Below, one piece after another: positions 3,094-46,363 of a stretch of 64,000 bases of DNA (positions are counted from its first letter, which is position 1; the number at the start of each line of letters is the position of its first letter). Source of the DNA: a virus. Where the stretch lies: IMG/VR virus record IMGVR_UViG_3300033155_001835, positions 2,603 through 66,602 of that record, one strand, 5' to 3'. The notes beneath the pieces are model-generated. The model was given only the letters and a program-made list of their open reading frames with translations, had not been told where the DNA came from and did no database searches. Position numbers and translations under genes: made by a program.

Positions 3094-3103
3094 TGGTATC
3101 AGT

Positions 3104-6100: not shown

Positions 6101-6148
6101 ACAGGCAGTCACGTACAACAACTATCTAACTTTGGAGGTATTCTATAA
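3104..6148 (+). CDS. Polyvalent protein: zincin-like, ADP-ribosyltransferase-like, Ser/Thr kinase, zincin
   Basis: Frame is open from 3056; likely start is TTG 3104 (TTGGCTAAC, as at 20003 and 37774). Motifs: AHEGAE; LFHGT..I..GVF; EGSFA..VKK..E..LYMEY..DIHGGNIL..IDWGLA; RHERFH..EEYFA. Confidence 0.75.
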   Translation: MANAFIQQLYAEGIVSGELSAPESIRARAAHVAKQSGFTFVTEGKPLFRKGERWKVGSVKYKTHTRFYAQTQAIRENWEARASSVFGRPLSTERLENLTAVIQAHEGAEAFYLGKTGHQRFGSHASESVIQSELEVARRMGPQTAADTVRYRRWESEQLVGMATHQTPYWNTYRQRMGSILDEFESQGAVVGSGWQKRGGRRYRSVAEQFKLDPNKNVTLFHGTNELSAQRIAKGVFEQGADRNYVEYHRLAKAQAIESWAAPRGPVAGGLIGDRPLSALEQKQFHTPALLVTEIPSKYVGIQSGTGQFDENIVWSEGLKQAKHRVVTGEEALQRISEQNLTVQEYFEEESFKKQAAAKSSAMARTETAMAKAGKATALNPDEAWAAFLDEKTPGTPRGLPPPVEATRGFKRISRWKIGLGVGAAALAGYGITKLLPDENRGYYSFDGFQHAGTAPGIRRDMTPFGSKYDRVRKLAGMMEETFEMMTSRKGFKQALQSAKLVKTFEEGSFATAGLYRASYKGKSFRFVKKEISQEAKEELMRNAANPEKYARGLDLEHEAKFLRELGETPAAPSLYGHFDDALYMEYMPGERMGDWAVNNPAAVMTRQAKEDIEETIYQAAKKGFTNLDIHGGNILFDPKTGRGSWIDWGLATREASGVVGQSSEMSGKFLGTTGVAVPLLEQKAHMMQGSIRKVSSSFASVPAGPRAKLLAEQNASEGMKHGGMAQRKRSSITEFGSKWKGMFGRLFGGKSKAAWKGGARQLPERLQVVARDWQGVTARPERLQQFLHADIEASGLSNALQKNLKKEASQFLKGAKAQEHYVIANPRAIKEGAAEEGVSYLARYKGVMRHERFHQSIAKHKVRDSLRLLNDSSFIPEHFHKFAGKNAAEEYFAYAMEQPLVRRQSGYKHAMALFKGNDAAYTRIEALHGKNVASQLRKVLTDFGSGYRGLQASFSKTVAQAARPRAGIKLTNSAKDLKLAQENIWEWARGGGQRHTRPTGSHVQQLSNFGGIL

Positions 6149-12371: not shown

Positions 12372-14749
12372 AAATCTTTGGCTTCGATATCAACTGGAAC
12401 AAAGCACCAGCAGATCAGGTAATCGTTCGCACGGTTGCACCTGCAACAATTCCTGTCTCTAAAATCCCTACTGTTAAAATTGGTTCTCTTTCTTATGCAC
12501 AACAGTTTGCGCAAGGACGCGGCCATTTTCAGTCTGCAGAGTATGACTTATCCGAAATTGGTAAGATAGAAGATACTGATGGCTTTGTCCGTCAGGCTTT
12601 CAAAAAGAAAGAAGGCTTGATGTTCAAAGAGGGCGTTGGATGTAAGGGAGCTAACAAACGTACAGTCCGTTATTACAAGACTCGTATGGCTCAAATAGCT
12701 CAGGCATCTAGTGTTCCCACAAGTATTCTATTGAAGCGAGTGGCGCGTAGTCTTATTCGTACCTCAAACGCCTTTCTTGTTAAGGTTCGTGACCCAAACA
12801 AGTCTGGTGGTAGTATGCGTACTACTGCTGATGGTAAGCGTTTAAAGCCAATTGCTGCCTACTTCCCAGCTGCACCAGAAACAATGCGTGTAGATTTGGA
12901 CGCAAATACAGGCAAAATACGTAAATGGCGACAAGTTCTTCCAGATGGACGTTGGAAAGACTATCAACCAGAGAATGTTGTTCATTTCGCAATCGACAAG
13001 CGAGAGGGCTTTTTCTTTGGAGTTCCTTCTATTATTCCTGTTATTGATGATATTCGTGCCCTTCGCCAGATCGAAGAAAATATTGAACTACTTTTATATC
13101 AACATCTCTTTCCTCTTTTCCATTACAAGGTAGGTACTGAAACAGCTCCTGCTGGATATACCGAGGAAGGAGTAAGGGAAGTTGACGCAATAGAGACTCA
13201 GATTAGCATCATGCCTTCTGAGGGCGCTATCGTTACTCCAGAGCGTCATGAGATTAAAGCTATTGGCTCTGAGGGTAGAGCTGTTAGAGCTGAAGGTTAT
13301 CTAACCCACTTCAAGAAACGTGTCTTTGCAGGTCTAGGCGTCTCTTCTGTAGACATGGGCGATGGTGATACAACCAACAGAGCTACTGCTCAAACCCTTT
13401 CTCGTGCAATCATTGATGCTGTTAAGGCTATCCAAGATGATCTTGAAGCACAATGGAACCAGCATGTCATTTCCGAACTACTTCTTGAAGGCGACTTTGG
13501 TGCTCGTGTTCTTGAAGAAGAGGATATGGTCTTCTTACAGTTCACTGAAATTGATATTCAGAACAAGATGGAGATTGAGAAGCATGCTATGGAGCTATGG
13601 AAGGCCAGCTTGTTGACATTTGATGAAGCCAGAGGCGCAATGTCTCATGAGCCTATTCCTCTTCCAGAACATGGTGAAGAGCAGGATCCAAAGAAGTACC
13701 CTGAATGGTTCTCTATTTACTTCAAGCTTATCGAAGAGCCTCTTAACCTTATTCGTGCCGTCGATGAACCTTTCAGTATGGCTGCAAGAGCTATGGCTGA
13801 AGCACGTGGTGCGGCTATGACCGAGAAGGGCAGACAAGAGCAGATTGCAGGTAAGAAAGAAGAGGTTAAAGCTCAAGCAGAAGAGGATAGGAAGACCAAG
13901 ATCGCTGTTGTTAAAGCAAAGCCAGCCTCGCCTCCTTCTACTAAGAAGAAAGATCACTACCTCTCTACTGCTTTCAAGGACCTTGAGTCTGATACTGTTG
14001 ATCGTATCCAAACTAGCATCACCTCCAGAGGAGTTGTTGATGCTGAATACCTTCTATCACTAGCTCGTATATGGGCTGCGGATACTGTAGAGAAACTACA
14101 TTCTCTAGCTGTGGGTCAGTTAATCCTTGGTTTTAATGATCAAACTAACATGCAAGCATCGAACGCTGAAGTCTTACTTTCTGTAGGTCGTCAGATCATT
14201 TTGGACCGTATTGACTACCGTATCAACAAACTGGTTGTTAATACTGTGAACCTTGTCTCCCGCCGAGTTGACGAGAACCTTGGTGATGTTAAACTGGCGG
14301 AAGCATTGCCGGATGTAGCCCGCGAATTGCATATTGCATTTGATGCAGTTAGATATCGTACGGACTTCATCTGGGATGTAGAGATTCGCAAGGCCTACGC
14401 TTTCGGTCGTGTCCTTGGTATGAGACATCTAGGCGAGTATGGTTTTGAATATCATGCCCATTCAGATAGTTGTGAACGTTGTGCTGCAATAGATGGCCGA
14501 GTAATGCCTGCCATGGCTGCGGGGATCGACGACGTACCTCCTCTTCATCCAAACAGTCGGATGAAGTTTAAGATCGTTAGAGAAGACCCAAGCATTGTAG
14601 ATGTAACTGACGCAACAAAAGAAGGTATTGAACAGATCATGGTACCGTGTCCTGAGTGTGGCAAGTCAGCAACCTGGCAATCGAAAGCAGCAAATTACTA
14701 TTGTGCGGCATGTTCACATTCATTTGTTGAAAAGGATATCAAGGAGTAA
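12368..14749 (+). CDS. Portal protein fused to MuF-like domain and Zn ribbon
   Basis: Position between TerL and protease; portal-type segments (NAFLVKVR, VVHF..FFGVP, FAGLGVS, LTFDEAR). C-terminal CERC..DG..PPLHPNSR and CPEC..CAAC. Confidence 0.88.
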   Translation: MKIFGFDINWNKAPADQVIVRTVAPATIPVSKIPTVKIGSLSYAQQFAQGRGHFQSAEYDLSEIGKIEDTDGFVRQAFKKKEGLMFKEGVGCKGANKRTVRYYKTRMAQIAQASSVPTSILLKRVARSLIRTSNAFLVKVRDPNKSGGSMRTTADGKRLKPIAAYFPAAPETMRVDLDANTGKIRKWRQVLPDGRWKDYQPENVVHFAIDKREGFFFGVPSIIPVIDDIRALRQIEENIELLLYQHLFPLFHYKVGTETAPAGYTEEGVREVDAIETQISIMPSEGAIVTPERHEIKAIGSEGRAVRAEGYLTHFKKRVFAGLGVSSVDMGDGDTTNRATAQTLSRAIIDAVKAIQDDLEAQWNQHVISELLLEGDFGARVLEEEDMVFLQFTEIDIQNKMEIEKHAMELWKASLLTFDEARGAMSHEPIPLPEHGEEQDPKKYPEWFSIYFKLIEEPLNLIRAVDEPFSMAARAMAEARGAAMTEKGRQEQIAGKKEEVKAQAEEDRKTKIAVVKAKPASPPSTKKKDHYLSTAFKDLESDTVDRIQTSITSRGVVDAEYLLSLARIWAADTVEKLHSLAVGQLILGFNDQTNMQASNAEVLLSVGRQIILDRIDYRINKLVVNTVNLVSRRVDENLGDVKLAEALPDVARELHIAFDAVRYRTDFIWDVEIRKAYAFGRVLGMRHLGEYGFEYHAHSDSCERCAAIDGRVMPAMAAGIDDVPPLHPNSRMKFKIVREDPSIVDVTDATKEGIEQIMVPCPECGKSATWQSKAANYYCAACSHSFVEKDIKE

Positions 14750-17969: not shown

Positions 17970-19232
17970 ATGGAATTCAATCTCAAAGACGCTTCCCATG
18001 ACGAGTTTAGGTGGCTATGGGACAACAACGGAAGCTATGGTCCTGACAAGGACAACGTTGTTAAGCTTAAGGATGCTCTAAGCGTACCTAATGCTCCAAT
18101 GCTGTTCCCTAAGGTGATTCAGAATATCGTTAAGGAAGCTGCTGAGCCTCTATTGGTTGCTACTTCTTTGCTACAAAGAATCAACTATAGCTATGGACAG
18201 ACTATTACCTTCCCCGCAGTCGGTGCACTAGTTGCAGCAGACATCGCTGAAGGTCAAGAGTACCCAGAGCGTAGCCTCCAGATGGGAGGAGCAACTGTCA
18301 CGGCAACTATCGGTAAGTCCGGTCTTGCAGTGAAGGTAACGGATGAAATGATTCGTTACAGCCAGTTCGACGTAATTGGCATGCATCTCCGTGCTGCTGG
18401 TAGGGCTCTTGCAAGGCATAAGGAAGTTAAGTGCTTTAACTACATCCGTGCGATGGGTGTTACTGCATTCGATAACCTTGAGCCAAGCAACTCTGTGTTC
18501 GGTGTTACAACTGGACGCGACATGAATGGTGCTCCAAACGGTTCTGTTACTATGGATGATGTCTTCGACGCATTTGCTCAGGTCATTACTCAGGGTTTCA
18601 TGCCTAATACTCTCTTGATGCACCCTCTCACATGGACTATGTGGGTTAAGGACGCACAGCTCAGGGCATTTGTCCAGGCAAACGGTGGCGGAGTCTTCTT
18701 CGCTAACTGGACTGGCAACCCAATGGGTCGCGCTCCATGGGACAACAGTAATCAAGGTGGTCTAGGTACTGCTTCTGGTCAAATGCTTCTGCCAGGACAG
18801 AACTTGAGCGGTGGAGCTACACCTCATGGTCAGTCTGCTAGCCCACTATTGAACTACCCACAAACTCTAAATAGCGGTCCAGTGCTGCCGAGCTACATGA
18901 ACGTTCCGTTCCGTATTATCGTCAGCCCATATGTGCCTTACGATCCACGTCGTAGGCTCACGGACATCTATATGTTTGACGGTTCCGAGCTTGGCGTACT
19001 TATCGTAGATGAGGATGTCACCACGGAAGAGTGGGATGACCCAAAGGTAGATATCAGGAAGATCAAGCTGCGTGAGCGTTACGCAATTGGTATCCTGAAC
19101 GAGGGTCAGGGCATTGCTGTTATGCGCAACGTACATGTTGTACCTAACGACATCGTTCTACCTGCTCAGGCACAGGTTACGGTATCTGGTTCTATTCAGC
19201 CAATTCCACCTTCAACACCACTAAGCCTGTAA
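17970..19232 (+). CDS. Major capsid protein (HK97 fold)
   Basis: IAEGQEYPE, KSGLAVKVTDEMI, LLMHPLTW, IKLRERY; strong RBS; followed by a terminator. Confidence 0.92.
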   Translation: MEFNLKDASHDEFRWLWDNNGSYGPDKDNVVKLKDALSVPNAPMLFPKVIQNIVKEAAEPLLVATSLLQRINYSYGQTITFPAVGALVAADIAEGQEYPERSLQMGGATVTATIGKSGLAVKVTDEMIRYSQFDVIGMHLRAAGRALARHKEVKCFNYIRAMGVTAFDNLEPSNSVFGVTTGRDMNGAPNGSVTMDDVFDAFAQVITQGFMPNTLLMHPLTWTMWVKDAQLRAFVQANGGGVFFANWTGNPMGRAPWDNSNQGGLGTASGQMLLPGQNLSGGATPHGQSASPLLNYPQTLNSGPVLPSYMNVPFRIIVSPYVPYDPRRRLTDIYMFDGSELGVLIVDEDVTTEEWDDPKVDIRKIKLRERYAIGILNEGQGIAVMRNVHVVPNDIVLPAQAQVTVSGSIQPIPPSTPLSL

Positions 19233-23154: not shown

Positions 23155-25038
23155 ATGGCCTATGACAATTTGTCTGGAATCTTCCCTCTGTTGGTTGATG
23201 GTAACCTACAGATTTCAGCTGTTAATCAAAATCCAGTAGTTTGTGTAATCGGTACGGCAAGCCGTGGCGATAGTGAGTCTCTATATGCAGTAGCTGGTGT
23301 TTCACAGTCAGCTTCAGACTTCGGTCGTGCTGACGGTAGTCTAATCCGTGGTCTTTATGAGGCCGTTGCAGGTGGAGCACAGAACATCCGTTTGCTCCGT
23401 ATTGGTGCTAAACCAGCCATTTTGTCTGGTTTCGGTGATAGTTTGACTGTCACTACTAACTCTAAGGACGCAGGTGCAGGTGCAGAATTCCTTATTTATT
23501 GGGATGACACTGCACTCAGACTACGCATTTGGCGAGCATCTGATGACCTACTAGTTTACGACAATAACCCAGTTTATCCTTCTGCAGCTATTGATGAGAA
23601 CATCATCTCTGTCACTGGTACAGCAGTTACTGGCAGTGGTGATATTGGTACTCTGCTAGCACCTCTCACTCTTGCAGACGCAGATGGTGTGAGTGCTGCA
23701 GTTTACACTGCTGGCGACGACGGTATCCTTTTGAGCCGTATGGAGCTTTTTGAGGCTCTATTTGTATCCTACAAGCTACTAGAGAATGAAGATCTAGATA
23801 TGATTCTTCCGCAGAACGCTTATGTCGATGACTCTAGTGTCACAGACATGACAACTGCTGAAGTCACTGCCCTAAACGTTGGTGCTCCATGGGCTGCTAG
23901 CTCTGTTTACCCAACTCCAGGTACTTTCTTTGACACTCTTGGCGAGTGTTTTGCTCAAGAGTATCTAGGCGAATGGCACTTTTGGTGGGACCTAGACAGA
24001 GATGGCGTTGCAGAGGTCTTCCCTAATGTTGGTTCTTCTAGTGCAAGTCTAGACGCATTTGGTAATGCTCTTGATGCTTCTGATTTCCATGAGGCTAACT
24101 TCGCTTACCAGCTAGCAGACTTCTGTTTCCGTCAGTCCGAGGACAACGCAGAAATGCTTGGTACTGTTGGCATGCTACCTCCTCTTTCTTGGTCCCTCAA
24201 GGATGTTAGCAATTGGGTCGGTCGCGTTCCAACTCTTACCACAGATAGCGCAGGTAACTCTGTTATCGCACTAGGTGGTAACGGTACTGGTCTACTTGGA
24301 AACAAGTGGATGGCAGGTCGTCTTGGTGTTGGTGGCACTGGTCTCCCAGGTCACACCATTAATGGTATTGATGGTATGGCAGAGGGTGGCTTTATTGCTA
24401 CTGACTCTGGTTGGCCAGATGGTTCTCAGGAGAAGGATGTAAATGATCACCTAGTAGACATCGGTAAGTACATTTCTGTTGTCGGTGGTCAGGCTATCCT
24501 GTCTAACAACAGTAATCCAACTGCATATGCTGCAACAGCAGCTAACGTATATGGCGGCTTTGTTTCTTCATTGCCTGGTAACAGCGCACCAACAAACAAG
24601 GTACAGCCTGGCGTAAGACTGCCTTTCCGTATCAGTGTAGCCAAGCTAGACCTGCTTGCAGGTGCAGGCTACGTCATGCTTCAGCAGAAGCCAAAGGGTA
24701 TCGTTGTAAGTGATGCTCCAACCGCTACTCGTTCTGACAGCGACTATAAGCGTCTAACCACAATGAGAATTGTGAAGGCATCTATTGACGGAGTGCGTGC
24801 CGCAGGTGAACCTTACATTGGTGAACCAATCACCGGACCACGTCTTGCAGCTCTAGAAACTGCTATCCAGCAGATTCTGGTTAAGCTACAGAAGGCAGAG
24901 TTCTTGAACAGGTTTGAGGTTGCTGTTACTTCAACGCCATCTCAACGTGTCCAGGGACAGGCTAATGTAGAACTACTGCTTGTACCAGCATTCGAGTTGC
25001 GCCAGATCACGGTCACTGTAGCTCTTGCTGCACAATAA
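23155..25038 (+). CDS. Contractile tail sheath protein
   Basis: VIGTASRG N-terminus, SAPTNK, RLTTMRIV, C-terminal LVPAFELRQITVTV. Confidence 0.9.
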   Translation: MAYDNLSGIFPLLVDGNLQISAVNQNPVVCVIGTASRGDSESLYAVAGVSQSASDFGRADGSLIRGLYEAVAGGAQNIRLLRIGAKPAILSGFGDSLTVTTNSKDAGAGAEFLIYWDDTALRLRIWRASDDLLVYDNNPVYPSAAIDENIISVTGTAVTGSGDIGTLLAPLTLADADGVSAAVYTAGDDGILLSRMELFEALFVSYKLLENEDLDMILPQNAYVDDSSVTDMTTAEVTALNVGAPWAASSVYPTPGTFFDTLGECFAQEYLGEWHFWWDLDRDGVAEVFPNVGSSSASLDAFGNALDASDFHEANFAYQLADFCFRQSEDNAEMLGTVGMLPPLSWSLKDVSNWVGRVPTLTTDSAGNSVIALGGNGTGLLGNKWMAGRLGVGGTGLPGHTINGIDGMAEGGFIATDSGWPDGSQEKDVNDHLVDIGKYISVVGGQAILSNNSNPTAYAATAANVYGGFVSSLPGNSAPTNKVQPGVRLPFRISVAKLDLLAGAGYVMLQQKPKGIVVSDAPTATRSDSDYKRLTTMRIVKASIDGVRAAGEPYIGEPITGPRLAALETAIQQILVKLQKAEFLNRFEVAVTSTPSQRVQGQANVELLLVPAFELRQITVTVALAAQ

Positions 25039-25055: not shown

Positions 25056-25736
25056 ATGGCCCCCGTTTCAAGTCCATATTCTAGGAGCTACAATAGCTTC
25101 AGCGGAGTCGATATTAAAGGCGTCTTCGCAAACAAAGTCATCGCGTCTCTGCAGGCTATCAGCTACAGTATCACGCGCGAAAAGGCACCTATTTACACAA
25201 TGGGTTCTGCTGATCCTCGTTCTTTCTCAAGAGGTAAGCGTGGTATCGCTGGCACACTAGTGTTTGTCGTGTTTGATCGTCATGTATTGCTATCAGAACT
25301 TGGTGGCTATGCTACAGGCGGGGGACTTCGTTTCCAGTCTGACATCGACGACATTCGTCCTGAGTTTAAGGTGAAGGCGTCCCTACAGTCTAACCTTACC
25401 TCTACCAGCGGCGTAACACCTGCTGATACTGTAGACTCGCAAGAGAGCAACATTGCTACTGTTGGTGGCGATCAAGAGGTTGCTGGAGCCTGGTATACTG
25501 ACCAGATTCCTCCTTTTGATGTCACTCTAGCAGCAGCTAATGAGTATGGCGCTCTTGCAGTTATGAGGATCTTCGGCGTGGAACTGCTTAACGAAGGCTA
25601 CGGTGTTTCTATTGATGATATCGTGTCTGAGCAACAGCATACCTATGTTGCACGTCAGATCATCGGTTGGCAGCCAGTTGCTAGTAAGAATGCAGATCTG
25701 ATTGCTAATCAGGGTGGAGTTTCTACTGGCGCGTAA
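25056..25736 (+). CDS. Tail tube protein
   Basis: Follows the sheath; SFSGVDI, ISYSITREKAPIYTMG..RGKRGIAGTLVF, DQIPPFDV; followed by a terminator. Confidence 0.85.
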   Translation: MAPVSSPYSRSYNSFSGVDIKGVFANKVIASLQAISYSITREKAPIYTMGSADPRSFSRGKRGIAGTLVFVVFDRHVLLSELGGYATGGGLRFQSDIDDIRPEFKVKASLQSNLTSTSGVTPADTVDSQESNIATVGGDQEVAGAWYTDQIPPFDVTLAAANEYGALAVMRIFGVELLNEGYGVSIDDIVSEQQHTYVARQIIGWQPVASKNADLIANQGGVSTGA

Positions 25737-25785
25737 TCACTAGTTGCGCTACACTAGTTATGACATCAGCACAAGTATTGGGCAC

Positions 25786-25816
25786 AAGCCGTCCTTCGGG
25801 GCGGCTTTTGCTTTAC
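25786..25816 (+). terminator. Rho-independent terminator with UUCG tetraloop
   Basis: AAGCCGTCC-TTCG-GGGCGGCTT followed by TTGCTTTAC. Confidence 0.85.
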
Positions 25817-25844
25817 TTGACAGCGAATTCTTGACCGTTACCCT
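25817..25844 (+). promoter_or_regulatory. Candidate sigma70-type promoter
   Basis: TTGACA 25817-25822, 16-bp spacer, TACCCT 25839-25844, directly after the terminator. Confidence 0.35.
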
Positions 25845-25861
25845 ATGGGTAGGTGATTTGA

Positions 25862-26800
25862 ATGGCAGACCCACTACTCTATCCATGGCCAGAAGATGCT
25901 AATGCTCCCCAGCTTGCTGGGTCAGTCTTTGTGAATAACACAAGCTATTCTGGTTGTGACATTAAAGTAGTAGTCAATCTGTATGACCAGGGTGTTGGGA
26001 TCCAAAAGCAGATAACAGATTTGAGAGATCAGCTGAAGTCAGACCAGACAGAGCTAGATAAGGTAGAGACTAATATAAGAAAGCGTGAGATCACGGCATT
26101 CAGTTCTAAACCTGGTACACAGGGCTTTCATCGAGCAATGTCTTCAAGAGCATCCTTAGTTGCTCGTCAGGCTCGCTTAAAGGATTCGATTGTTTCAACA
26201 GAAGACCGTCTGAAGACGCTTAATCTACAAGCCCCTAATTTATCTACTAAAACTCTTGCTGAGGCACAGACCCTTGCCATCTCTATCTACCGTGATAAAC
26301 AGGCTGTGCGTGCTTGTGGTACTGTATATCCCAAGGCTTTTACACGTGGACCTCGTGAGATTGCAGGCTCTATTATCTTCACGGTTTTCAATGAGCACGT
26401 CATGCACCGCTTCCTAGAAGCACACGCTACAGACTTTGATGCTGTACGATTCACTACTGCTATTCTAGACCAGCTTCCTCCAGTCGATATCACTGTTTCG
26501 TTTGCTAATGAGTTCGGCGCTGTATCCCGCATGGCTCTGTATGGTGTTGAATTTTTGACAGAAGGACAGACAATGTCTATCGAAGACTTGTTAACTGAAA
26601 ACGTGGTTAGCTTTGTAGCTAGAGACTTCGACCCAATGAGAGCTGTTGGACAGCGTAAGATAGACGAAAGCAGTTATATGTTACAACAGCAGATGGGTAA
26701 GAAGGCAAGTGATCTCATTCTAGAGGAAGATCACCAGGCATTTACTCAAGCGCTAGACCCATTTGAACGTTTCAGCCGTAGACGTAATCCATTTGTATAG
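25862..26800 (+). CDS. Tail tube paralog (tube initiator-like) with coiled-coil insertion
   Basis: SYSGCDI, RGPREIAGSIIF, DQLPPVDI, ANEFG match the tube; about 80-aa helical insertion. Confidence 0.75.
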   Translation: MADPLLYPWPEDANAPQLAGSVFVNNTSYSGCDIKVVVNLYDQGVGIQKQITDLRDQLKSDQTELDKVETNIRKREITAFSSKPGTQGFHRAMSSRASLVARQARLKDSIVSTEDRLKTLNLQAPNLSTKTLAEAQTLAISIYRDKQAVRACGTVYPKAFTRGPREIAGSIIFTVFNEHVMHRFLEAHATDFDAVRFTTAILDQLPPVDITVSFANEFGAVSRMALYGVEFLTEGQTMSIEDLLTENVVSFVARDFDPMRAVGQRKIDESSYMLQQQMGKKASDLILEEDHQAFTQALDPFERFSRRRNPFV

Positions 26801-26810
26801 GAGTGACTAA

Positions 26811-27578
26811 ATGAGTAGAAGCCAAGTACAAACCAGTATTTACGATCTAGACTACTTCAGTGGCGCACAGATGTTTCTTTACATTGGAGATGTATGGGTG
26901 GACGAAGTAACTGGTCTCCAATATTCAACCAGTCAAGTAAAAACTCCTATCTATGGATATGCTTCACAACTATATGATGATTGTGCAGCTGGTCATGTTA
27001 TCACCCAAGGTAGCTTTAGTATCAACTTTAAAGAGGCAGGATACTTGTGGGCAGTGTTAAGGCGTTGGCACAATCTTGGAGCTAAAGCTGCGAATTTTCC
27101 CGTGGCTAAAGCTGACCAAAGATTGTTGGCTGGCAGAAACGCTAGTCTTGATAACAAACCTGTAGCAGGTCCTAATACACGTAAAGTAAAGAGAAGAAGT
27201 ATTGAAAGCATCACACAAGGTAATGCTACTAAGGGTGAGACTTACAAGTTTTACCAAAATCTAGCAGGCTATGCTACCACACAGGTTAAGAATCCTAGAG
27301 ACAGAGCTTTTGAAGATGTTGTTGAAGCATTTGAAGATCAGATTTGGGCTCCTAAAATTAGCAACAACACGCTCAACTCACAACTAAGACGTACTGACTC
27401 TAATGAGTTTGATGGTTTTGATATCTTTGTAGTCTTCGGCAACTATGCTACTCCAGGTGCAAACCACACTGTCCAAAAGATTACAGATGTTCGCTTGCAG
27501 TCCCAAAGTAAAATGATTAAAATTGACGGTGAACCTATTCAGGAGTCTTATAATTTCATCGCTCGATCAGTCGTCTAA
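26811..27578 (+). CDS. Tail tube paralog
   Basis: YFSGAQ, KTPIYGYAS, QGSFSINF, ESYNFIAR resemble the tube. Confidence 0.7.
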   Translation: MSRSQVQTSIYDLDYFSGAQMFLYIGDVWVDEVTGLQYSTSQVKTPIYGYASQLYDDCAAGHVITQGSFSINFKEAGYLWAVLRRWHNLGAKAANFPVAKADQRLLAGRNASLDNKPVAGPNTRKVKRRSIESITQGNATKGETYKFYQNLAGYATTQVKNPRDRAFEDVVEAFEDQIWAPKISNNTLNSQLRRTDSNEFDGFDIFVVFGNYATPGANHTVQKITDVRLQSQSKMIKIDGEPIQESYNFIARSVV

Positions 27579-32200: not shown

Positions 32201-33220
32201 GAAAAGTTTCAGGTATGGGGCACAGAGAATGCATTCTGGGGTCATCCAATCAGAGACTTCTTTGGACCTTTCTTTAATCAGACAGCACACAACGCAGGCT
32301 GGGAAGGTATCCCACAACATGTCGAAGAGCGTAGAGACTTGGAAGAGTATTTTGACATTCTAGAATACGTCAAGTACACACGCCTCAAGACCGCTGCTCG
32401 TGTGTCTGGTAATAGTCGAGCTGTAGCTGAGTACGAGGATAAGCGTAGAGAAACTTTGTTTGGTATCAATCCATACACTTTCAACTTCTCTCACATCTTT
32501 AGATCACTACCTCGCCGAGAGAGAGACTATTTTAATGCTTTCTCAGAGGCTGACATGGAAGAGCGTGTACAGATTATGAAGATGGTCCCTGAGAATGAGC
32601 AGGCTTTGCTTCTAGCTAGATGGCGTCTTAAAGACAACACAGATTTACAGAAAGCAATGAAGAAAGGCTTGTTGAGTGAAGAACAAGTAGAGAAAGCTGA
32701 CGCGATCCAGGAACAACTGTTCGAGGATAAGGGGACAGAAGGTTTTCCAAAGACTCAGGACCTGTGGGCAGAATACATTGCTACTCGACTACCTGAAGAG
32801 AGTTATCCCGATTGGTACAGACGTATGAAGCTGCTAGAAAAGAAACTAGATGGCAAACCTCTTCCAGGACCAGACTGGGTTGGTTGGCATCCTGCTGTTG
32901 ACTTAGATGACATAAAGCTCAAGATAGTGCAAAATGAAGGTGAAAACGCTTACGATTACGACTTGTGGCCTGACCGTATCAGAGCAGTAGCTCGAAGGCC
33001 AGTTATCACTGAGGCAGCCGAAGCACTAGATGAGGATGTAGGAGATGCATCAGACTTGCGTGCTCGTATCATAGATGTGCTTTCTGCTAACAACATTTCT
33101 GCATCGCATATTAGCTTAACCAGAGTTGTGGAGAATGGACAAACAGAGATCAATCTAGATCTTGCAGAAGATCGTCTTCAGTCTAATCGGGCTGACATTA
33201 GGAGGATGTTGAATGGCTAA
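29288..33220 (+). CDS. Large tape-measure-position / ejected protein (1310 aa)
   Basis: Follows the chaperones; several Gly/Ala hydrophobic helices; Trp/Pro-rich blocks. No classical TMP repeat seen. Confidence 0.55.
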   Translation: MPMYPYTHNIGNMSFEDMRAVSTPSSTPSWTSGAQPVPITTAEQAWGWTKFGLGVGAIALLGRYQVTPQKRGFDYMLGAIRAVEEYSPGRVFRTFQVSHMMSALETPSLQMRYFSPEHISTLRKTVPGRAWLEHLSKLTGRSITGQDIMAEGVGFRYEAGQLRTGRYGGETLLRHAGVIRAPTGAGGRFQEAYARSLSGGPLTRGLDAPTTMGATRFETQFADDAFRQRIKYRNAAGVLQREAFMFTGGHTRIQAGKRFVSGYGTALAERINQLARAPFELPGISAVMKKVPIVNRLKFGVIPSSGLRTVSKITAKLGILGTATYMAYNELDYQAREAEVLDETVLGEGISAGVAKLWTGVQVGLSRAAEWTGAHSYKDWQEDTAPGSTELSRLLAFPLIGAAAGLTVGYSQRVLRQRALSKAGLSLGQASAAAGARDAFFKTSIYGGQVPEEIMGALDKRSIALVEAETAKRAAGWEGRFVSKIAKTQQRRTAMGALTRGLGKVTPGRLRWLLGAAAGASLVVPFLPGAMAPSERPEELEALYGGQKRVAIRKGRWWEFGRTPFEGKRIDRFQQHWYPAMLARAKEKAIWGDDAPSPLERWWIENMTYELEKKHYKERPYPITGQAFEDVPFIGPILSNTIGRLVKPSIRMHEEEWTRQGEEGEEVKRMPLKYNETTLPGEKTPGAPVSPYDTKGMMGEQIYRMTEMVGLPGFTMTAIKEAITGRSDTFDQEQQLESAVRMYGAEREYWDKELGGGLGTTELIRRLYPHRRRQIDLYNPIRNQMPAWMPGPGQRAPDFLHGDPYVKIPEGESRLPGPGYQALHPELKGIGPDDYPAIHRFAILADVAPYTDKFRASIGHVRAAIKRKQLTAEEIALYKERMGEVSARKVRRQFTPYKYKERASTPIEKMLAAANKDQAAVGDQVDPSWFQQAVGTYWETLTHNADTPLESLTPVSPTAKLVHQRTAVEDYEKFQVWGTENAFWGHPIRDFFGPFFNQTAHNAGWEGIPQHVEERRDLEEYFDILEYVKYTRLKTAARVSGNSRAVAEYEDKRRETLFGINPYTFNFSHIFRSLPRRERDYFNAFSEADMEERVQIMKMVPENEQALLLARWRLKDNTDLQKAMKKGLLSEEQVEKADAIQEQLFEDKGTEGFPKTQDLWAEYIATRLPEESYPDWYRRMKLLEKKLDGKPLPGPDWVGWHPAVDLDDIKLKIVQNEGENAYDYDLWPDRIRAVARRPVITEAAEALDEDVGDASDLRARIIDVLSANNISASHISLTRVVENGQTEINLDLAEDRLQSNRADIRRMLNG

Positions 33221-36200
33221 CGAAGAAGGCAGTGGAGTTCTACAGAAAGCAGCTTTTATTGTTCCTACTGCTGTCGGGGTCAGAGCGTCTTATCTTTCAG
33301 CTAAGAACGCTGGCGCATTCTCCTCTTTTGGTCAACCTGTTGTCCCTATCCAGCAAGCTAATGCTGCTGTGCAAGAGTTTGCAAGTAAGTATCTAGCAGA
33401 CGATCCTGCCCTTACTCGTTCTATCAACAAGTGGCACCTTGATGCTATTCAAGATATGTCAACAGGTACAAAGCTTTCTGCAGATGAAGTACGTAGCTCT
33501 ATACTGCGAGCCTCTAGGCTTTCGGATCCCACGGGTGGTCTTACTAATTTCTTCCAAGCTCGTCTAGCTTATGGTGCTACTGGAGAAGAAGTACTATCTG
33601 ACTTAACACGTGCCCTTCGAGAGAACAATTCTATCTATGCTCAAAGAGCAACAAACATCTTTCTTGAAGATCTCAATGTGATGGAAGAGATGGTAGATAG
33701 AGGAGTGCCTACGCAGACCACTGCATTCACTGAACGTGTGAATCAAAGCAAAGTCAGAGTAAATGTAAGTTCTCTCGATGACATAATGAGGGCTGACATT
33801 GCACGTATCGAAGAGCTTACTGGTGCTAGTGTGAGTATAAAACAAGTCTCACGACCAGGTACCGTGCTTGGTGCCGAGCTGCACATGAAGCTTTCAGGTC
33901 TTACTTTCGCAGGTCAAGAAAAGCCAGGTTCACTTACTTTAAGAATCCCTCGGCCTCTGCCTGATCAGCCAGGTATGATTGTTAGGGGTACAACTCAGCA
34001 GTCACGCTACATCGCAGGTACTTACGGACTTGTTGATGAGGGAATGTTGATACAGTCATTTAACCATGAGCAGTGGAACCTTCGTAGAGCAGCAGAAGAT
34101 CTTATTCCATCCATGATGAGAGAGAAGAGGTTGACGCAGAGAGCAGCATGGGGAATGGTTGGTGAGTTCGAGAAGCGTATGATGGAAGCACCTGAATGGA
34201 TTCCTTCAATAGACCCAGGTGTGCATGCTGGTGTAGAAGAGTATGTGAATATGCGTTCTCAGGTCCAGCGTCTATGGGCTGTAGGAGATGAACCTAATAC
34301 TGTAAGGGCTCTTACAGAGTTTGAGTATGCTGGCTTAATGGAGCGGGGAGGAGTGAACCTTCCTGACGGCGGGCTTAAGCCTCTTTATCCTGGTCATTCT
34401 CCAGCACAAATAGCTAAGGGTGTAGCTTCAACAGTAGATGTGCGAGGAGCGCTATCAATGGTACCCGAGGCTGTTCCTTATGGTAGGCGTCCACTTCAGT
34501 TTCTCCGTTCTGGTTTTACTCCTACAGATGCAGCTTTGGAAGCTATAGAGTCTAGTAAGACACATCAGTATTTTAGCTGGGCAGCAGCAGATACAGGTAT
34601 TAGTGCTCCTATGATGAGAGCAGCTTATGTCTCTGCTGACCTTGACCCACGTCTTGCAGGTACTGGCGTAACTTCTGAAGGTCAGTTACTCATCTCTAAT
34701 CGCATGCGTGATCAGAGAGCTGTTAATCAGTGGCAACAGTTTGATGTAGCTTCAGACCAGTTACAAGAGTTAGGTGATCTTATCAAAGGTCAGACTGGTA
34801 GTAAATGGGATATCAATCAAACCCTCCCAGGTGGCACAGTATTAGGACGAGGGCCAGATGGACGACCTGTTGTACTTCCACAGGATATGCATATCAGTAC
34901 AGCTACAGCTTTTGCCAAGGATAAAGCTAAAGGCGACTTCATTCGCGTGATGGGGATGAAAGAAATAGAACGTATGCGTTATTCGAAGGTCTTTGGTGGT
35001 GCGAAGGGAATGGCGGTTTCTGTTCCTCAACAGTATATCGAAGATGTTTTGACTCAGCATGCTGGTATGGCTCAGTCCAGAGGTGATATTTTCAGTGGTA
35101 TCGACACTATTATCACGATGGATGAACTGAAAAAGAATCGGGGTCTGCATTACAACCAGATGTTTACATCCTTGTGGGATTTTAATCAACAGAACATGAA
35201 AAGTGGTATGGCAAAGGGTTCTAGGTTTGCTAAGACACCACAGGCCGTTATTGCTGAGATCAGACGTGCAGTCCTCGATGCTGACAAGTTCGATCACGAA
35301 AAAGCATTAGGTCGTATTATGGGACTCGCTAGAAAAGCTAATCTTACACCTCACCAAATGGGTCGTGTCTTTGGCGCTGTGCCAGATATCTTTGACGACC
35401 TTTCTGCTCTAGGTCCTCTTTCTGCTGCTGAAGCTGCAGAGATTAAGTCTGGAGTTGCTACAGGTGCGACTCAGCTTTACTTCGAGGGTCTAGGTGGTCC
35501 AGGAGCAGGACGTACTGCTACTATCGAACCACGTATGTTTGAACTCCTCGGCTCTCCTCATTTCGGTTCTGCTGGACTAGGTTTACAATCCGAAGTGGCA
35601 GAGCGCATGATTGCTACTTATCCAGAACGATTTATGGAGCAGAGAGAGATTACTAAGTCACTTCGTAGCGTTATGAAGCCTGGCAAGGGAACCCTCGGAG
35701 AAGCTGCTGGAGATTTACTTTTAAAGATGGATGAAGAGATTTTACCTCTTAAGTCAACTACCTTAGGTATCTCTGGTGTAGGCAACATCTACATTCCTGG
35801 TGCTGCAGAAGTATCACAACTTTCTGAGTATCAAACGGCTGCGGGCAAGGGCGTTCTTTCTCCTCTTGGACATTCCTATCGTGATGTTATTGAAACAGCA
35901 GCAGCATATGAATCTAAAGATGTAACAGCTGATGTTATGCAACGCAAGCTTGGGTCATTACAAAACGCTCTTGTTGGCGCACGTGTTGCTACTGTTACTG
36001 GCACAAAGGGTGCTTTACGCAATCGTCTTCCAGGTAGTGTTTTCCTAACAGCGGTCCAGCCTACTCTTACTGAGAAGCTTGCTCCGAACGTTGTAGGTAT
36101 CACAGCGCCTTATGCTGAGCAGGTTTTCACAGAAATGGAGAAGTTGAATCTCTATGATGACTTTGAGCTGAAGCGAATGAGACTTAAGTTCCTCAAAGGT

Positions 36201-37757
36201 GAAATGATTGCAGGAGTATTAGGACGACATCCATACATTGGTCCATATAGTTCTCAGGCTGTAAAGTTCCAGATGGTTGCTGGTAGTGATCCAATTGCTA
36301 TGATTAATGAACGTTTACAAAATGCAGTCGCTTTCCAAGGGGAATTAGATGACGCTTCTGTAAATAAGTTTTTGGAGCATTCAAAGCGTGCATATCGGGG
36401 AAGCAAACTGACCCATCGTAGAGCACTTGAGATGGGAGCAGAGAAGCTTGGTAGTCCTATCCGCCTCTCTCCTTTCGTTGGTATAGCTGGTGATGTTGAT
36501 GGCGACGTTATCTCTGCTATGTTTGCTGGTCCACAACTAGAGAAGTCGTTGACTAGCCATATAGATAGCGATGCCGCTTTGCGTGCTTACGAAGAATATT
36601 CAATTAGAAGTCAGGTCTTAAAAGCAAAAGCTGGTCCAGCTGATATCACATTGCGTAAGGCAATGGCTGGAGATGCTATCAAGTTAGGCATCACTGAGGG
36701 CGGCAGACTAGGTAGACTTTCTGTCAGCTTACAGCAGCATCGTGCTGCCTTGTTAGCAGGAGCTGGCGGTTTAACTGATCAAGCTCGTATGGATGCTCTT
36801 GGTTTGCTGGAATGGATGGAGCAAACACCTATTTCTGGTAAACACATCAAGACTGGTTCAGAAGCACAAATGATTCACTTGTTAGATGATATTCAAGAAT
36901 CACTTGATAAGAAGTCGGCGAATGGTATATCTGATGCAGCTAATAGAGTGATGACTGAAGCTAAGATGACAGGTAAGCGAGCTTTGAGACAAGGTTTTAC
37001 AATCGCAATGGAAGATATCGATACAGGTGAAGTCACTACGCGTTTTATTCGTGGTACAGATATCGACAAAACAGCTAAGAACATTATGAAAGCTAGTGGT
37101 GCTTTCGAAGCTTCTGCTTCAGGTCGCGCTTCAGCAGCTAGATTGCGTGAGATGATTATGGGCAGAGGTGGATTCTCTACAGGACAAGAAGCCGCCCAAG
37201 TGATGGACCCTCGTGTATTAGAGCAGTCGCCAATGGGAGGCTTGTTCTCTCGTGTGACTGAAGAGACCAGCACTTTTTCTAACCTAGCTAATCGAGGTCA
37301 GGCACTTTCAAACAAGGTGGGAGCCGCTGGACGTTCTATGTTAAAGCATGCTCGCCCTCTTGCAATTGGTACTGGCTTAGGATTAGGTCTTGCAGCAGTA
37401 TTGAGTGAGCCTCCTCGCATTCTGCCACCAGGTGCTAATGTTGCACCTACTGGTATAATCAACGCTAATACAGGTGGCTCAAACATGGGTACAGATATAC
37501 ATCCTGAGGGTCATGTACAAGGAGCACCTACAGCCCCATCGCCTATGGGACAAGGCAGTGCACCAGTTGCTCCTGGTTCAGGTTCAGGTTATCGTGTTAA
37601 TATACGTGGCAATACGAATACGAGTATAGATCAGAGGTCGTTAGCACAACAACTACGTGGAGCGGGTGGCGGCAGAGCAAGAGTCAACTCAATAGTCCAT
37701 GATCAGCGTAGTACTATGACCCCTCAAAGACTTTCCTCTATGCTTCGTGGCGATTAA
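33213..37757 (+). CDS. Large virion protein with two-barrel RNA polymerase-like motifs (1514 aa)
   Basis: AGGAGG RBS; EGQLLIS, KVFGGAKG, GRHP, GDVDGD (36489-36506), LGRL..QTPISGKHIKTG in RNAP order; C-terminal glycine-rich hydrophobic helix. Confidence 0.6.
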   Translation: MANEEGSGVLQKAAFIVPTAVGVRASYLSAKNAGAFSSFGQPVVPIQQANAAVQEFASKYLADDPALTRSINKWHLDAIQDMSTGTKLSADEVRSSILRASRLSDPTGGLTNFFQARLAYGATGEEVLSDLTRALRENNSIYAQRATNIFLEDLNVMEEMVDRGVPTQTTAFTERVNQSKVRVNVSSLDDIMRADIARIEELTGASVSIKQVSRPGTVLGAELHMKLSGLTFAGQEKPGSLTLRIPRPLPDQPGMIVRGTTQQSRYIAGTYGLVDEGMLIQSFNHEQWNLRRAAEDLIPSMMREKRLTQRAAWGMVGEFEKRMMEAPEWIPSIDPGVHAGVEEYVNMRSQVQRLWAVGDEPNTVRALTEFEYAGLMERGGVNLPDGGLKPLYPGHSPAQIAKGVASTVDVRGALSMVPEAVPYGRRPLQFLRSGFTPTDAALEAIESSKTHQYFSWAAADTGISAPMMRAAYVSADLDPRLAGTGVTSEGQLLISNRMRDQRAVNQWQQFDVASDQLQELGDLIKGQTGSKWDINQTLPGGTVLGRGPDGRPVVLPQDMHISTATAFAKDKAKGDFIRVMGMKEIERMRYSKVFGGAKGMAVSVPQQYIEDVLTQHAGMAQSRGDIFSGIDTIITMDELKKNRGLHYNQMFTSLWDFNQQNMKSGMAKGSRFAKTPQAVIAEIRRAVLDADKFDHEKALGRIMGLARKANLTPHQMGRVFGAVPDIFDDLSALGPLSAAEAAEIKSGVATGATQLYFEGLGGPGAGRTATIEPRMFELLGSPHFGSAGLGLQSEVAERMIATYPERFMEQREITKSLRSVMKPGKGTLGEAAGDLLLKMDEEILPLKSTTLGISGVGNIYIPGAAEVSQLSEYQTAAGKGVLSPLGHSYRDVIETAAAYESKDVTADVMQRKLGSLQNALVGARVATVTGTKGALRNRLPGSVFLTAVQPTLTEKLAPNVVGITAPYAEQVFTEMEKLNLYDDFELKRMRLKFLKGEMIAGVLGRHPYIGPYSSQAVKFQMVAGSDPIAMINERLQNAVAFQGELDDASVNKFLEHSKRAYRGSKLTHRRALEMGAEKLGSPIRLSPFVGIAGDVDGDVISAMFAGPQLEKSLTSHIDSDAALRAYEEYSIRSQVLKAKAGPADITLRKAMAGDAIKLGITEGGRLGRLSVSLQQHRAALLAGAGGLTDQARMDALGLLEWMEQTPISGKHIKTGSEAQMIHLLDDIQESLDKKSANGISDAANRVMTEAKMTGKRALRQGFTIAMEDIDTGEVTTRFIRGTDIDKTAKNIMKASGAFEASASGRASAARLREMIMGRGGFSTGQEAAQVMDPRVLEQSPMGGLFSRVTEETSTFSNLANRGQALSNKVGAAGRSMLKHARPLAIGTGLGLGLAAVLSEPPRILPPGANVAPTGIINANTGGSNMGTDIHPEGHVQGAPTAPSPMGQGSAPVAPGSGSGYRVNIRGNTNTSIDQRSLAQQLRGAGGGRARVNSIVHDQRSTMTPQRLSSMLRGD

Positions 37758-45136: not shown

Positions 45137-46363
45137 ATGCCTTTGTTTGCTAGAAGTTACCAAGAGTTGATGGCTGATTCTCTAGAAGATTTAGCTAACA
45201 ATACAAACATTACCAAGTTATCGGCTGGTGGTATCGCTAGAGCTTTACTCGAAGCTATGAATACAAGACTAGCTGAAGCGTATGAGATCTTTGATCTTAA
45301 CATGGCTCGTGCTTTTGTTTCTTCTGCTCCAGGTCAGTTCCTAGAGTTGATTGGTACTCTTCTCGGTGTAGAAAGAGAGCCATCTTTTGCTGCTAATGCA
45401 GATGCAGATACACAGGTTATCAAGTTCTATGTTAACACTGGAACCTTTGGTGCATTGAATGGTGGCAACGATATCACTCTTTTGCAGGGTACTGTAATTT
45501 CTACACTAGCAAGCAATGGTGGTATCTTATATAAAACTACAGAGACAGTCACTTTAAATGTTGCTGATACAGATCAGTGGGTTGGTGCAATAGCTGTACA
45601 ACCAGGTGAGGATGCTAATGTGGGTACTAGCGTTCTTGTTTATCACGACTTCACTAATTATACCGACAGTGACAATAGCACATTGTTGGTAACGAATGTA
45701 CACCAAATTGCTAATGGCAAGAATTTCGAATCTGATGCTAATTATCGTTACCGTATTGTGAACAAAGCCCTTGAGGCTGAAGCAGCTAACAATACTGCGA
45801 TTAGGTTGGCTGTGCTTTCCACCCCAGGAGTCGCTGACGCCGTGCTCCTGCCGCGTTACAGAGGTATTGGTACCGTGGGTGTCATTATTCAGTCTGTCCT
45901 TCCTACAGTCTCTGATAGCCTTATAGACGCAGTTACTGCTAACGTGTTTAAGGTACAAGCACTAGGTGACCTTACTTTTATTCGTAAGCCATTTGAGACA
46001 GGGGTTACCATGAAGGTGACTGTACATTATGACCAGCAACTAACTGAAGAGGAGCTTCAGGAAATAGAAAATCTTTTGGAAGATGCAATCATCGAGTATA
46101 TTAATGAACTTGATATTGGTGAAGACTTTTTTATTAATCGTTTAGCTGCCGACCTTTTTGCTGTCTCAGACCACATCGCTAATCTGGGTGAGCCAGGTAT
46201 TCCTTTCGACGAAGTATATGTGTGGACAGAGTCTAAACTAGAAGACAATAGAATGCGTCAAAAGCTTTTGGCAGACTATGAATCAGAAGATGATGAGAGG
46301 GTTATTGTAGAACCTACTGTAGCAACACCATTTACATTTATTCGTTCTTTCGTGAGGCGGTAA
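45137..46363 (+). CDS. Baseplate J-like protein
   Basis: GGIARALLE, APGQFLELIG, ESDANYRYRI, PGVADA. Confidence 0.88.
   Translation: MPLFARSYQELMADSLEDLANNTNITKLSAGGIARALLEAMNTRLAEAYEIFDLNMARAFVSSAPGQFLELIGTLLGVEREPSFAANADADTQVIKFYVNTGTFGALNGGNDITLLQGTVISTLASNGGILYKTTETVTLNVADTDQWVGAIAVQPGEDANVGTSVLVYHDFTNYTDSDNSTLLVTNVHQIANGKNFESDANYRYRIVNKALEAEAANNTAIRLAVLSTPGVADAVLLPRYRGIGTVGVIIQSVLPTVSDSLIDAVTANVFKVQALGDLTFIRKPFETGVTMKVTVHYDQQLTEEELQEIENLLEDAIIEYINELDIGEDFFINRLAADLFAVSDHIANLGEPGIPFDEVYVWTESKLEDNRMRQKLLADYESEDDERVIVEPTVATPFTFIRSFVRR

Follow-up and report, generated by a model that had tools for sequence, protein, structure and literature searches.

Background

To our knowledge, a cell-type RNA polymerase (RNAP) has been linked experimentally to a tail tape measure in only one case, that of P23-45, a siphovirus of a thermophile. 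In P23-45, as well as in P74-26, G20c and TSP4, gp96 is described as a virion two-barrel RNAP fused to the tape measure (PMC10770324; PDB 8H2M/8H2N), and the P23-45 protein is reported to transcribe the early genes without the host enzyme, which provides a precedent (PMC10770324). In the preprint 10.1101/2020.03.07.982082, phi14:2 gp66 is described as a virion-packaged, one-chain two-barrel RNAP with giant virion neighbours, and the motif of the crAss-like enzymes is given as DFDxD. Here, we report on P0001 (33213..37757, + strand; 1,514 aa, ATG start), a gene found in a window of 64,000 nucleotides, namely the whole stretch of DNA that was analysed (bases 2603-66602 of the 66.6-kb viral record IMGVR_UViG_3300033155_001835; CheckV completeness, 35%). 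The product of P0001 is likely to be a single-chain two-barrel (cell-type), DNA-dependent RNAP that serves as a virion enzyme. All long open reading frames (ORFs) of the window are on the + strand, as are all the features given below, and the window corresponds to the structural half of a large contractile-tailed phage.

Predicted fold of P0001

The structure of residues 200-1380 of P0001 was predicted with AlphaFold2 from a 51-row alignment (mean pLDDT, 89.5; pTM, 0.88), and low confidence was seen only in the last 30 residues. The earlier note on this DNA had proposed a single-chain virion RNAP and had made the proposal depend on double-psi beta-barrels (DPBBs) in the model; the model bears this out, as it resembles only two-barrel RNA polymerases. 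With Foldseek, 114 matches at E <= 0.001 were obtained in the PDB, and the best 50 of the 114 were all RNAP beta, beta' or Rpo132 chains, the top match being E. coli beta (8txo_I; E 1.5e-5, probability 1.0). The N-terminal half of the model is similar to beta/Rpb2 and the C-terminal half to beta'/Rpb1. By structure match, the beta/Rpb2-like half, with a Lys-bearing barrel, was assigned to residues 200-808 (33810..35636), and the beta'-type DPBB to residues 941-1117 (36033..36563). In the model, two DPBB domains thus stand in one chain with the beta-type first, and their interface would form the active site, which is the arrangement that characterises the superfamily; D1094, D1096 and D1098 fall within the stretch matched by DPBB domains.

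The model was also aligned, independently of Foldseek, against all 48,161 PDB representatives, and rows 1-18 of this comparison were two-barrel polymerases. The scores were Z 11.8 for PEP beta, 11.4 for Pol I A190 and for the AR9 non-virion RNAP (nvRNAP), 11.2 for QDE-1 and for maize RDR2, 10.7 for the PhiKZ nvRNAP, 10.0 for P74 gp62 (399 aligned), and 8.3 / 7.6 for P23-45 gp96. The matches to beta'/Rpb1 and QDE-1 reach model residue 1149. The structure 6VR4 (phi14:2 gp66) was absent among the structure matches listed, which says nothing for or against similarity to it. In BFVD, the top Foldseek match came from an uncultured siphovirus and is named 'minor tail protein' (E 1.8e-10, TM 0.42).

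Elements of the putative active site were then located in the model (fragment number + 199 = P0001 number). K592 and K598 are in adjacent strands of the beta-like half (fragment 391-396 and 400-405), arranged as strand-turn-strand. Downstream of the Asp barrel, helices were predicted at fragment 966-982, 990-1009 and 1019-1033, and the loop between the latter two is PISGKH, which holds the invariant K1210. The helix with the sequence LGRLSVSLQQHRAALL and the PISGKH helix-loop-helix fit a candidate bridge helix and trigger loop, respectively; on the basis of the model helices and the invariant residues, these two elements were placed at 36702..36908, and EQTPISGKH (36819-36845) would be the tip of the candidate trigger element. 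Taken from the model, P0001 is predicted to fold as a two-barrel RNA polymerase in which the active-site residues are all in place and, we infer, to be active.

Conservation of the motifs

The strings on which the proposal of an RNAP had been built were all found in the translation of P0001, each at its reported position and in the reported order: SEGQLLIS from residue 488 (nt 34674), KVFGGAKG at residues 592-599 (34986..35009), LGRHP at residues 1003-1007 (nt 36219-36233), AGDVDGD at residues 1092-1098 (nt 36486-36506), LGRLS from about residue 1166, and EQTPISGKHIKTG from residue 1203. The KVFGGAKG hairpin carries K592 and K598, the candidate basic pair of the beta-type barrel. In the two-barrel family, the beta-type barrel is described as supplying two basic residues (PMC7824862); read from the behaviour of the known members of that family, K592 and K598 would have a catalytic role. 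R1005-H-P1007 (36225..36233), located 86 residues before D1094, is taken, from its conservation, to be the [RK]xP element that precedes the metal site, and D1094-V-D1096-G-D1098 (36492..36506), with three invariant Asp residues, is the predicted Mg-binding triad.

Conservation was evaluated with 121 aligned family members, which are 20-65% identical to P0001. R774, P862, P1007, D1094, D1096, D1098, E1203 and K1210 were invariant (121/121), and K592, K598, R1005 and S1013, among others, were conserved in at least 90% of the 121 sequences. In a separate alignment of 17 sequences, K592, G596 and K598 as well as T1205, P1206, I1207, S1208 and H1211 were invariant. Chaban et al. recognised two-barrel polymerases by the filter [RK]xP.{20,100}DxDxD (PMC10770324). 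With the spacing slightly widened from the {20,100} of Supplementary Data 4 of PMC10770324 to {20,110}, the pattern fitted 117 of the 119 full-length homologues, and the remaining two still keep DxDxD. The expectation that DxDGD would be conserved held for the three Asp residues (121/121) and failed for the Gly: among the 98 homologues having RHP...DxDxD, position 4 of the motif is A in 66 and G in 26, and DKDAD is the commonest form. In the complete 188.7-kb relative G001, bare DxDxD was found in 14 of the 211 ORFs of at least 80 aa, and in four of the 211 it had [RK]xP 20-100 residues upstream. Because the bare motif is not rare in G001, DxDxD alone is weak evidence; as judged from the sequences, the weight of the motif evidence is in the invariance and the context, not in DxDxD itself.

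Family and sequence searches

A word-indexed metagenome search gave 17 relatives of P0001 at 33-97% identity. An exhaustive phmmer search with residues 200-1380 was performed against 1.84 billion representatives of 50%-identity clusters with no length limit, and 175 cluster representatives were obtained at E <= 0.001, 127 of them at E <= 1e-30. The full-length members are nearly all 1,400-1,656 aa in length, the longest among 150 listed being 1,656 aa. In Pfam, the best match of P0001 was FIMAH at E 0.057 and nothing was significant; PHROGs has no family for P0001; and tblastn of P0001 against 50,697 phage records gave no match, nor were ME3_36, gp034 and gp146 (see below) found in this way. 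The best phmmer match of P0001 to PDB sequences was unrelated (E 0.54), and the 121-member profile returned no RNAP from the PDB sequences. PF05183 (RdRP/YonO) did not match any of 32 diverse members of the family at E <= 0.1.

Several low-scoring matches were set aside. When the 32 diverse members were searched with Pfam, 13 families appeared with one member each (E 0.012-0.095), and these were treated as noise. An EF-hand/calmodulin-like match at residues about 1285-1330 (about 37065-37200; E 0.008) covers a loop without acidic calcium ligands and is probably a mere helix-loop-helix resemblance. The look-alikes of P0001 in the protein atlas (language model) had scores of 0.77-0.83, which is the chance level.

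The tape-measure slot and the C-terminal module

The terminase and the hub protein of the window match those of MTATph1 (Moorella), KLEB27-3, 0305phi8-36, WH1, Edson (Bacillus) and ME3 (Acinetobacter) at 25-33% identity, and by these sequences the phage is in the myovirus lineage of Bacillus phage 0305phi8-36, Acinetobacter phage ME3 and Bacillus phage KLEB27-3. Three giant ORFs, P0157, P0001 and P0158, lie between small post-tube (chaperone-slot) ORFs and the baseplate. The upstream giant, P0157 (29288..33220; 1,310 aa), is by synteny the counterpart of 0305phi8-36 gp145 and of ME3_35; its stop codon overlaps the start codon of P0001, and AGGAGG is located 8 nt upstream of the P0001 ATG. The downstream giant, P0158 (37774..43881; 2,035 aa), is a baseplate hub with a cell-wall peptidase-like domain and the counterpart of 0305phi8-36 gp147. 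The order of chaperone genes, gp145-like giant, second giant and gp147-like hub was found in the window, in the loci L005 and L007, and in four isolates, and the trio of giants is retained in metagenomic relatives of P0001 at 26-31% identity. With the chaperone genes and the gp145-like gene upstream of it and the gp27-like hub downstream, P0001 is at the position expected of a tape measure.

The second giant of 0305phi8-36 is gp146, whose record reads 'hypothetical tape measure protein; identified as virion protein by mass spectrometry'. Hardies et al. called gp146 the tape measure from a correlation with tail length, and they reported that only the last 60 residues align between gp146 and its BtI1 prophage counterpart (PMC2147016). 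The tape-measure position that had been claimed for P0001 agrees with the annotation of gp146, the syntenic gene, and with a C-terminal module common to both proteins. Because the gene order is the same and the end module is common, P0001 is regarded as the positional counterpart of the tape-measure-slot protein of this lineage.

The C-terminal module (residues 1365-1514, 37305..37754) is also present in tape-measure-slot proteins of isolates. In it, a hydrophobic helix rich in Gly (1382-1398, nt 37356-37406) is followed by a linker rich in Pro and Gly and by a terminal motif of about 50 aa, GYxVNIxG...NSxVxDxRSSLTPQ. The hydrophobic Gly-rich segment at residues 1381-1401 reads RPLAIGTGLGLGLAAVLSEPP. 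A profile of the last 150 residues of the P0001 family was searched against 353 ORFs (isolates' loci and G001; the E-values are those for this small database), and it found the C-terminus of gp146 (residues 2447-2542, E 2e-10), MTATph1 CDS0031, a 313-aa ORF directly upstream of the hub (E 9e-7), and the C-terminus of KLEB27-3 gp034 (E 9e-4). With hhalign, the 17-sequence profile was aligned to gp146 with E 2.7e-4, and a Gly-rich hydrophobic segment is situated about 100 residues before the end in both gp146 and P0001. A C-terminal membrane-like helix had been predicted in the earlier note; the hydrophobic Gly-rich helix is indeed there, and it is short, with weak hydrophobicity. In MTATph1 (L029, 4946-12302), the slot-2 gene CDS0027 (1,309 aa) is separated from CDS0031 by a transposase gene and two small ORFs, and the slot-2 gene may have been split by insertion.

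At the other end of P0001, a hydrophobic Ala/Gly-rich segment, AAFIVPTAVGV (residues 13-23, 33249..33281), is conserved as SxFKTAxIxxPxAxGxG. Similar segments also open ME3_36 and the L007 orthologue, and a membrane or assembly role may be supposed for them in P0001.

Absence of cysteine

P0001 has no Cys in 1,514 residues (about 10.8 expected), and P0157 has none in 1,310 residues (9.4 expected), the background being 123 Cys in 17,172 residues (0.72%) of the other 39 ORFs of the window. Among the 119 full-length homologues of P0001, 115 are without Cys, and none has more than one. The same was found for all six slot-1 and slot-2 giants checked from four isolates, i.e. gp146 (0/2,537), ME3_35, ME3_36, KLEB27-3 gp034, and MTATph1 CDS0026 and CDS0027, and the three hub proteins checked have 5-10 Cys each. 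Proteins that cross the envelope unfolded tend to avoid cysteine, and its absence here supports transit through the tube and periplasm. The lack of Cys is read, from these sequences, as a property of the two slots and not of polymerases.

Slot proteins and other RNA polymerases of the lineage

Two of the slot-2 proteins of cultured phages carry the motif pair. In ME3_36, a 'hypothetical protein' of 1,603 aa, it reads REP...DHDQD (1174-1221); in KLEB27-3 gp034, a 'structural protein' of 2,434 aa, it reads RYP...DYDGD (1893-1937) and is preceded by about 1,800 other residues. In hhalign, a 32-sequence profile of the P0001 family placed RHPxIGPYSxQ...DxDxD in register with ME3_36 (E 8e-4) and the same RHP...DxDxD stretch in register with gp034 (E 0.012), and the 17-sequence profile gave no meaningful match to ME3_36 (probability 1.2%). 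In the Foldseek search of BFVD, two pieces of one ME3 protein (801/802 aa) matched the P0001 model with E 3.3e-7 and 2.6e-6, and their summed length equals the length of ME3_36. Another ME3 protein of 798 aa (A0A172Q0S6) was also matched in BFVD (E 2.2e-8, TM 0.50 on target), and this could be, to judge from the model, a second, smaller two-barrel polymerase of ME3. The Microcystis phages MaMV-DC and LMM01 were among the BFVD matches as well (E 5.6e-4 and 8.1e-3).

PF05183 found the separate RdRP/YonO-like RNAP of 0305phi8-36 (E 1.1e-20) and had no match in G001, ME3, KLEB27-3 or MTATph1. A separate PF05183 RNAP without the slot motif is therefore seen in 0305phi8-36, and the slot RxP...DxDxD without PF05183 in G001, ME3 and KLEB27-3. 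This distribution, with three carriers set against one phage, is a hint from the sequences that the slot polymerase and the separate RNAP are complementary. In MTATph1, PF05183 had no match, and the motif was not found in either of the two slot giants that were examined.

The complete relative G001 has a single copy of the P0001 family; no other large protein of G001 had [RK]xP...DxDxD, and none matched PF00623 or PF05183. G001 encodes its own Pol III alpha, ribonucleotide reductase and RecA. Inteins were noticed in its Pol III alpha, in its ribonucleotide reductase and in an AAA protein, and it also has genes for TnpB/Cas12f-like, ClpB-like, IMP dehydrogenase and adenylosuccinate synthetase proteins. 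The 'direct terminal repeat' of G001 is only 54 bp, and may therefore have arisen where the ends of an assembled, circularly permuted genome overlap.

Proposed role of P0001 and alternatives

For P0001 as a virion RNAP, we infer that it is incorporated into the particle, ejected and refolded, that it chooses its template and promoters, and that it is catalytically active, as follows. The beta-like half (about 200-808) would contribute a barrel carrying the two lysines K592 and K598, and a connector would lead to the beta'-like barrel with R1005-H-P and the Mg-binding D1094/D1096/D1098; the bridge-helix-like helix and the trigger-like helix-loop-helix, tipped by K1210/H1211, would come next. 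This polymerase core would be framed by the N-terminal hydrophobic segment and the tape-measure-type C-terminal module. By means of the latter, P0001 would be built into the tail together with the Cys-free giant P0157, and contraction of the sheath would expel both through the tube, P0001 being largely unfolded. P0001 would then fold on the cytoplasmic side and transcribe the first phage genes independently of the host enzyme, and this transcription possibly helps to draw the DNA in.

A number of observations weigh against this reading. The virion location is deduced from the gene position, the common C-terminal module, and the annotations of the counterparts in other phages. The model represents a compact enzyme of about 1,150 residues, including a C-terminal region and a connector of about 170, and its scores against QDE-1 and the P74 non-virion enzyme are higher than that against the flat gp96; unfolding and refolding must be assumed, because a folded compact enzyme could not pass the tail tube. 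Only about 180 residues follow the polymerase core, which are too few for a classical tape, and with about 1,150 of the 1,514 residues predicted to form the compact enzyme, P0001 does not appear to be a long, extended, length-setting chain. Its hydrophobic segments are short, and no 19-residue window reaches 1.6 on the Kyte-Doolittle scale. As for the counterparts, ME3_36 was not matched by the C-terminal profile in the search of 353 ORFs, the hhalign links of the 32-sequence profile are weak (probability 24% for ME3_36 and 3.5% for gp034), and gp146 of 0305phi8-36 and MTATph1 CDS0027 have no DxDxD; because of the latter two, the tape-measure slot by itself does not imply a polymerase. PF00940 (T7-type RNAP) had no match in five records, a search that is uninformative because the control genomes gave no match either. 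Lastly, a promoter-like word was sought in G001, and no 11-mer occurred at more than six sites and no pattern was seen near the ends, a null result that says nothing firm on promoters.

A bolder reading, which we consider doubtful though worth setting out, is that the polymerase chain itself occupies the tail lumen, i.e. that the Cys-free 170-kDa enzyme is stored unfolded or extended instead of a classical tape measure. P0001 would then be held at the hub by its C-terminal module, shot across the envelope with P0157, and folded on arrival. One polypeptide would have two structural lives, a large enzyme having been selected for translocation competence, and the three giants would make up one device for ejection, transcription and wall cutting. 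On this reading, the slot would accept exchangeable cargoes, and the polymerase body would be one of them, carried by this phage, ME3 and KLEB27-3 and lacking in 0305phi8-36.

It is distinctly unlikely that P0001 is an active two-barrel RNAP of the non-virion kind, made during infection for middle or late (or early post-translation) transcription, with its gene merely situated within the tail operon. The gene is fixed between the tail-assembly and hub genes in relatives down to 26% identity and in the isolates, P0001 and the virion tape-measure protein of 0305phi8-36 have the same module at their C-termini, and the annotation of KLEB27-3 gp034 is 'structural protein'. Moreover, the strict lack of Cys is common to the neighbouring counterpart of a virion protein and not to other genes, which is hard to explain for a cytoplasmic enzyme, and a gene in a late operon gives no first transcripts unless its product is carried in.

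We regard it as quite improbable that the two-barrel enzyme is injected but serves chiefly for something other than gene expression, as a membrane-anchored motor that draws the genome in through transcription, as a primer-maker, or as an RNA-template enzyme like QDE-1. The data do not separate such roles from ordinary early transcription, with which they are compatible; a primer-making role is not needed, because G001 has a presumed DnaG/toprim-type primase (DEDPD motif) and its own Pol III alpha. Finally, it is very improbable that P0001 descends from a polymerase, has kept the fold without polymerising any longer, and now has a structural role in the tail or in ejection, as a tape measure or pore former: the tape-measure slot and the tape-measure-type C-terminal module would suit such a protein, the slot proteins of 0305phi8-36 and MTATph1 without DxDxD indicate that the slot tolerates non-polymerase bodies, and the language-model look-alikes include tape-measure and minor-tail clusters (scores 0.80-0.81, the chance level), but if activity had been lost, the Asp triad, P1007, E1203 and K1210 would not be invariant across 121/121 sequences that are 20-65% identical to P0001, and the Lys pair and R1005 would not be conserved in at least 90% of them; the conserved positions belong to active-site elements, not to the surface.

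If P0001 is a virion RNAP, a large unannotated family, missed by Pfam, PHROGs and BLAST, would be doing something similar to gp96 in contractile-tailed phages of about 190-235 kb, and host-independent early transcription would be added to a lineage in whose records these genes are not listed as polymerases. The passage of a 170-kDa enzyme through the tail tube would then call for an explanation, to which the absence of Cys is a concrete clue. The tape-measure slot would also be suggested as a general entry point for injected enzymes, an idea that bears on phage annotation and on how phages, within minutes of infecting a cell, escape its control and defence. ME3 gene 36 and KLEB27-3 gene 34 are probable counterparts in cultured phages, which makes the proposal testable at the bench.

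Other features of the window

Upstream of the giants, PHROGs matches identified the large terminase (7741-9741), the portal (12368-14749) and the major head protein (17970-19232). A 1,030-aa ORF upstream of the terminase (3056-6148) had a weak ABC1 atypical-kinase-like match below the cut-off (E 1.7e-4). The tail sheath gene (23155..25038) matched phrog_16991 with E 5.6e-73, and the tail is therefore contractile. Directly after the sheath gene, three consecutive paralogues occupy the tube slot (25056-27578; 226, 312 and 255 aa); all of them match phrog_9206, which is labelled 'major head protein', at a position where a tube protein is expected, and ME3 and 0305phi8-36 have 'major structural protein' genes at this position. 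P0157 has 206 homologues and a confident structure model, in which no known fold was matched. P0158 matched the hub genes of 0305phi8-36, ME3, KLEB27-3 and MTATph1 in tblastn, as well as phrog_20474 (E 1.6e-65). Its residues 1085-1182 are VanY-type D-Ala-D-Ala carboxypeptidase-like (E 5e-5; 23.5 bits, just below the 25-bit cut-off), its residues 1288-1906 are similar to the hub/'endolysin' giants of the isolates, and its start codon as listed is TTG. The baseplate wedge gene, also identified with PHROGs, is located at 45137-46363.

Comparison with known systems

gp96, from a siphovirus, has 5,002 residues and carries its polymerase N-terminally, ahead of a very long tape with membrane and metallopeptidase domains, whereas P0001 belongs to a contractile-tailed phage, has 1,514 residues, about 180 of them after the core, and is not fused to a long tape. 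The peptidase-like domain is here on the separate hub protein P0158 and in gp96 on the same chain. gp96 is flat and clamp-less with a 67-residue connector, in contrast to the connector of about 170 residues and the C-terminal region in the P0001 model, and the architecture of P0001 probably differs from that of gp96 if the model is correct. A second, non-virion paralogue, as in P23-45, was not found in the complete relative G001. P0001 is not a member of the gp96 type, nor of the Pfam RdRP/YonO family.

phi14:2 gp66 (about 2,180 residues) is from a podovirus-like phage, and P0001 from a contractile-tailed phage; an 'RNA dependent RNA polymerase [Podoviridae sp.]' in BFVD, possibly of the crAss-like kind, matched the P0001 model with E 6.5e-6. 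For QDE-1 and plant RDR2 (PDB 2J7N, 7Y7P, 5FSW, 7W84), the similarity is a structure match with no sequence-level relation between the P0001 family and PF05183; these enzymes act in eukaryotic RNA silencing, whereas P0001 is encoded in a phage tail operon and has extra terminal modules. Unlike P0001, the RNAPs of the jumbo myoviruses PhiKZ and AR9 are composed of four or five separate chains and can be recognised from their sequences, and their genes are not part of the tail operon.

No account of a polymerase encoded in the gp146 slot of the 0305phi8-36 / ME3 / KLEB27-3 lineage came up in a literature search, and the genome paper of ME3 does not mention an RNA polymerase. Iyer et al., in their treatment of 0305phi8-36, give only a YonO-like enzyme for this phage. 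Ten supplementary files of PMC10770324 do not contain 'ME3', 'Acinetobacter', 'Microcystis' or 'LMM01', and the family may stand in the 23 RNAP family alignments of that paper (Supplementary Data 3) under another name. None of gp146, ME3_36 and gp034 is annotated as a polymerase in its record. gp146 (2,537 aa) is unlike P0001 in that it has no DxDxD and its phage has a separate PF05183-type RNAP. All three proteins are nevertheless like P0001 in occupying the same slot and in being free of Cys, and gp146 and gp034 have the C-terminal module in common with it.

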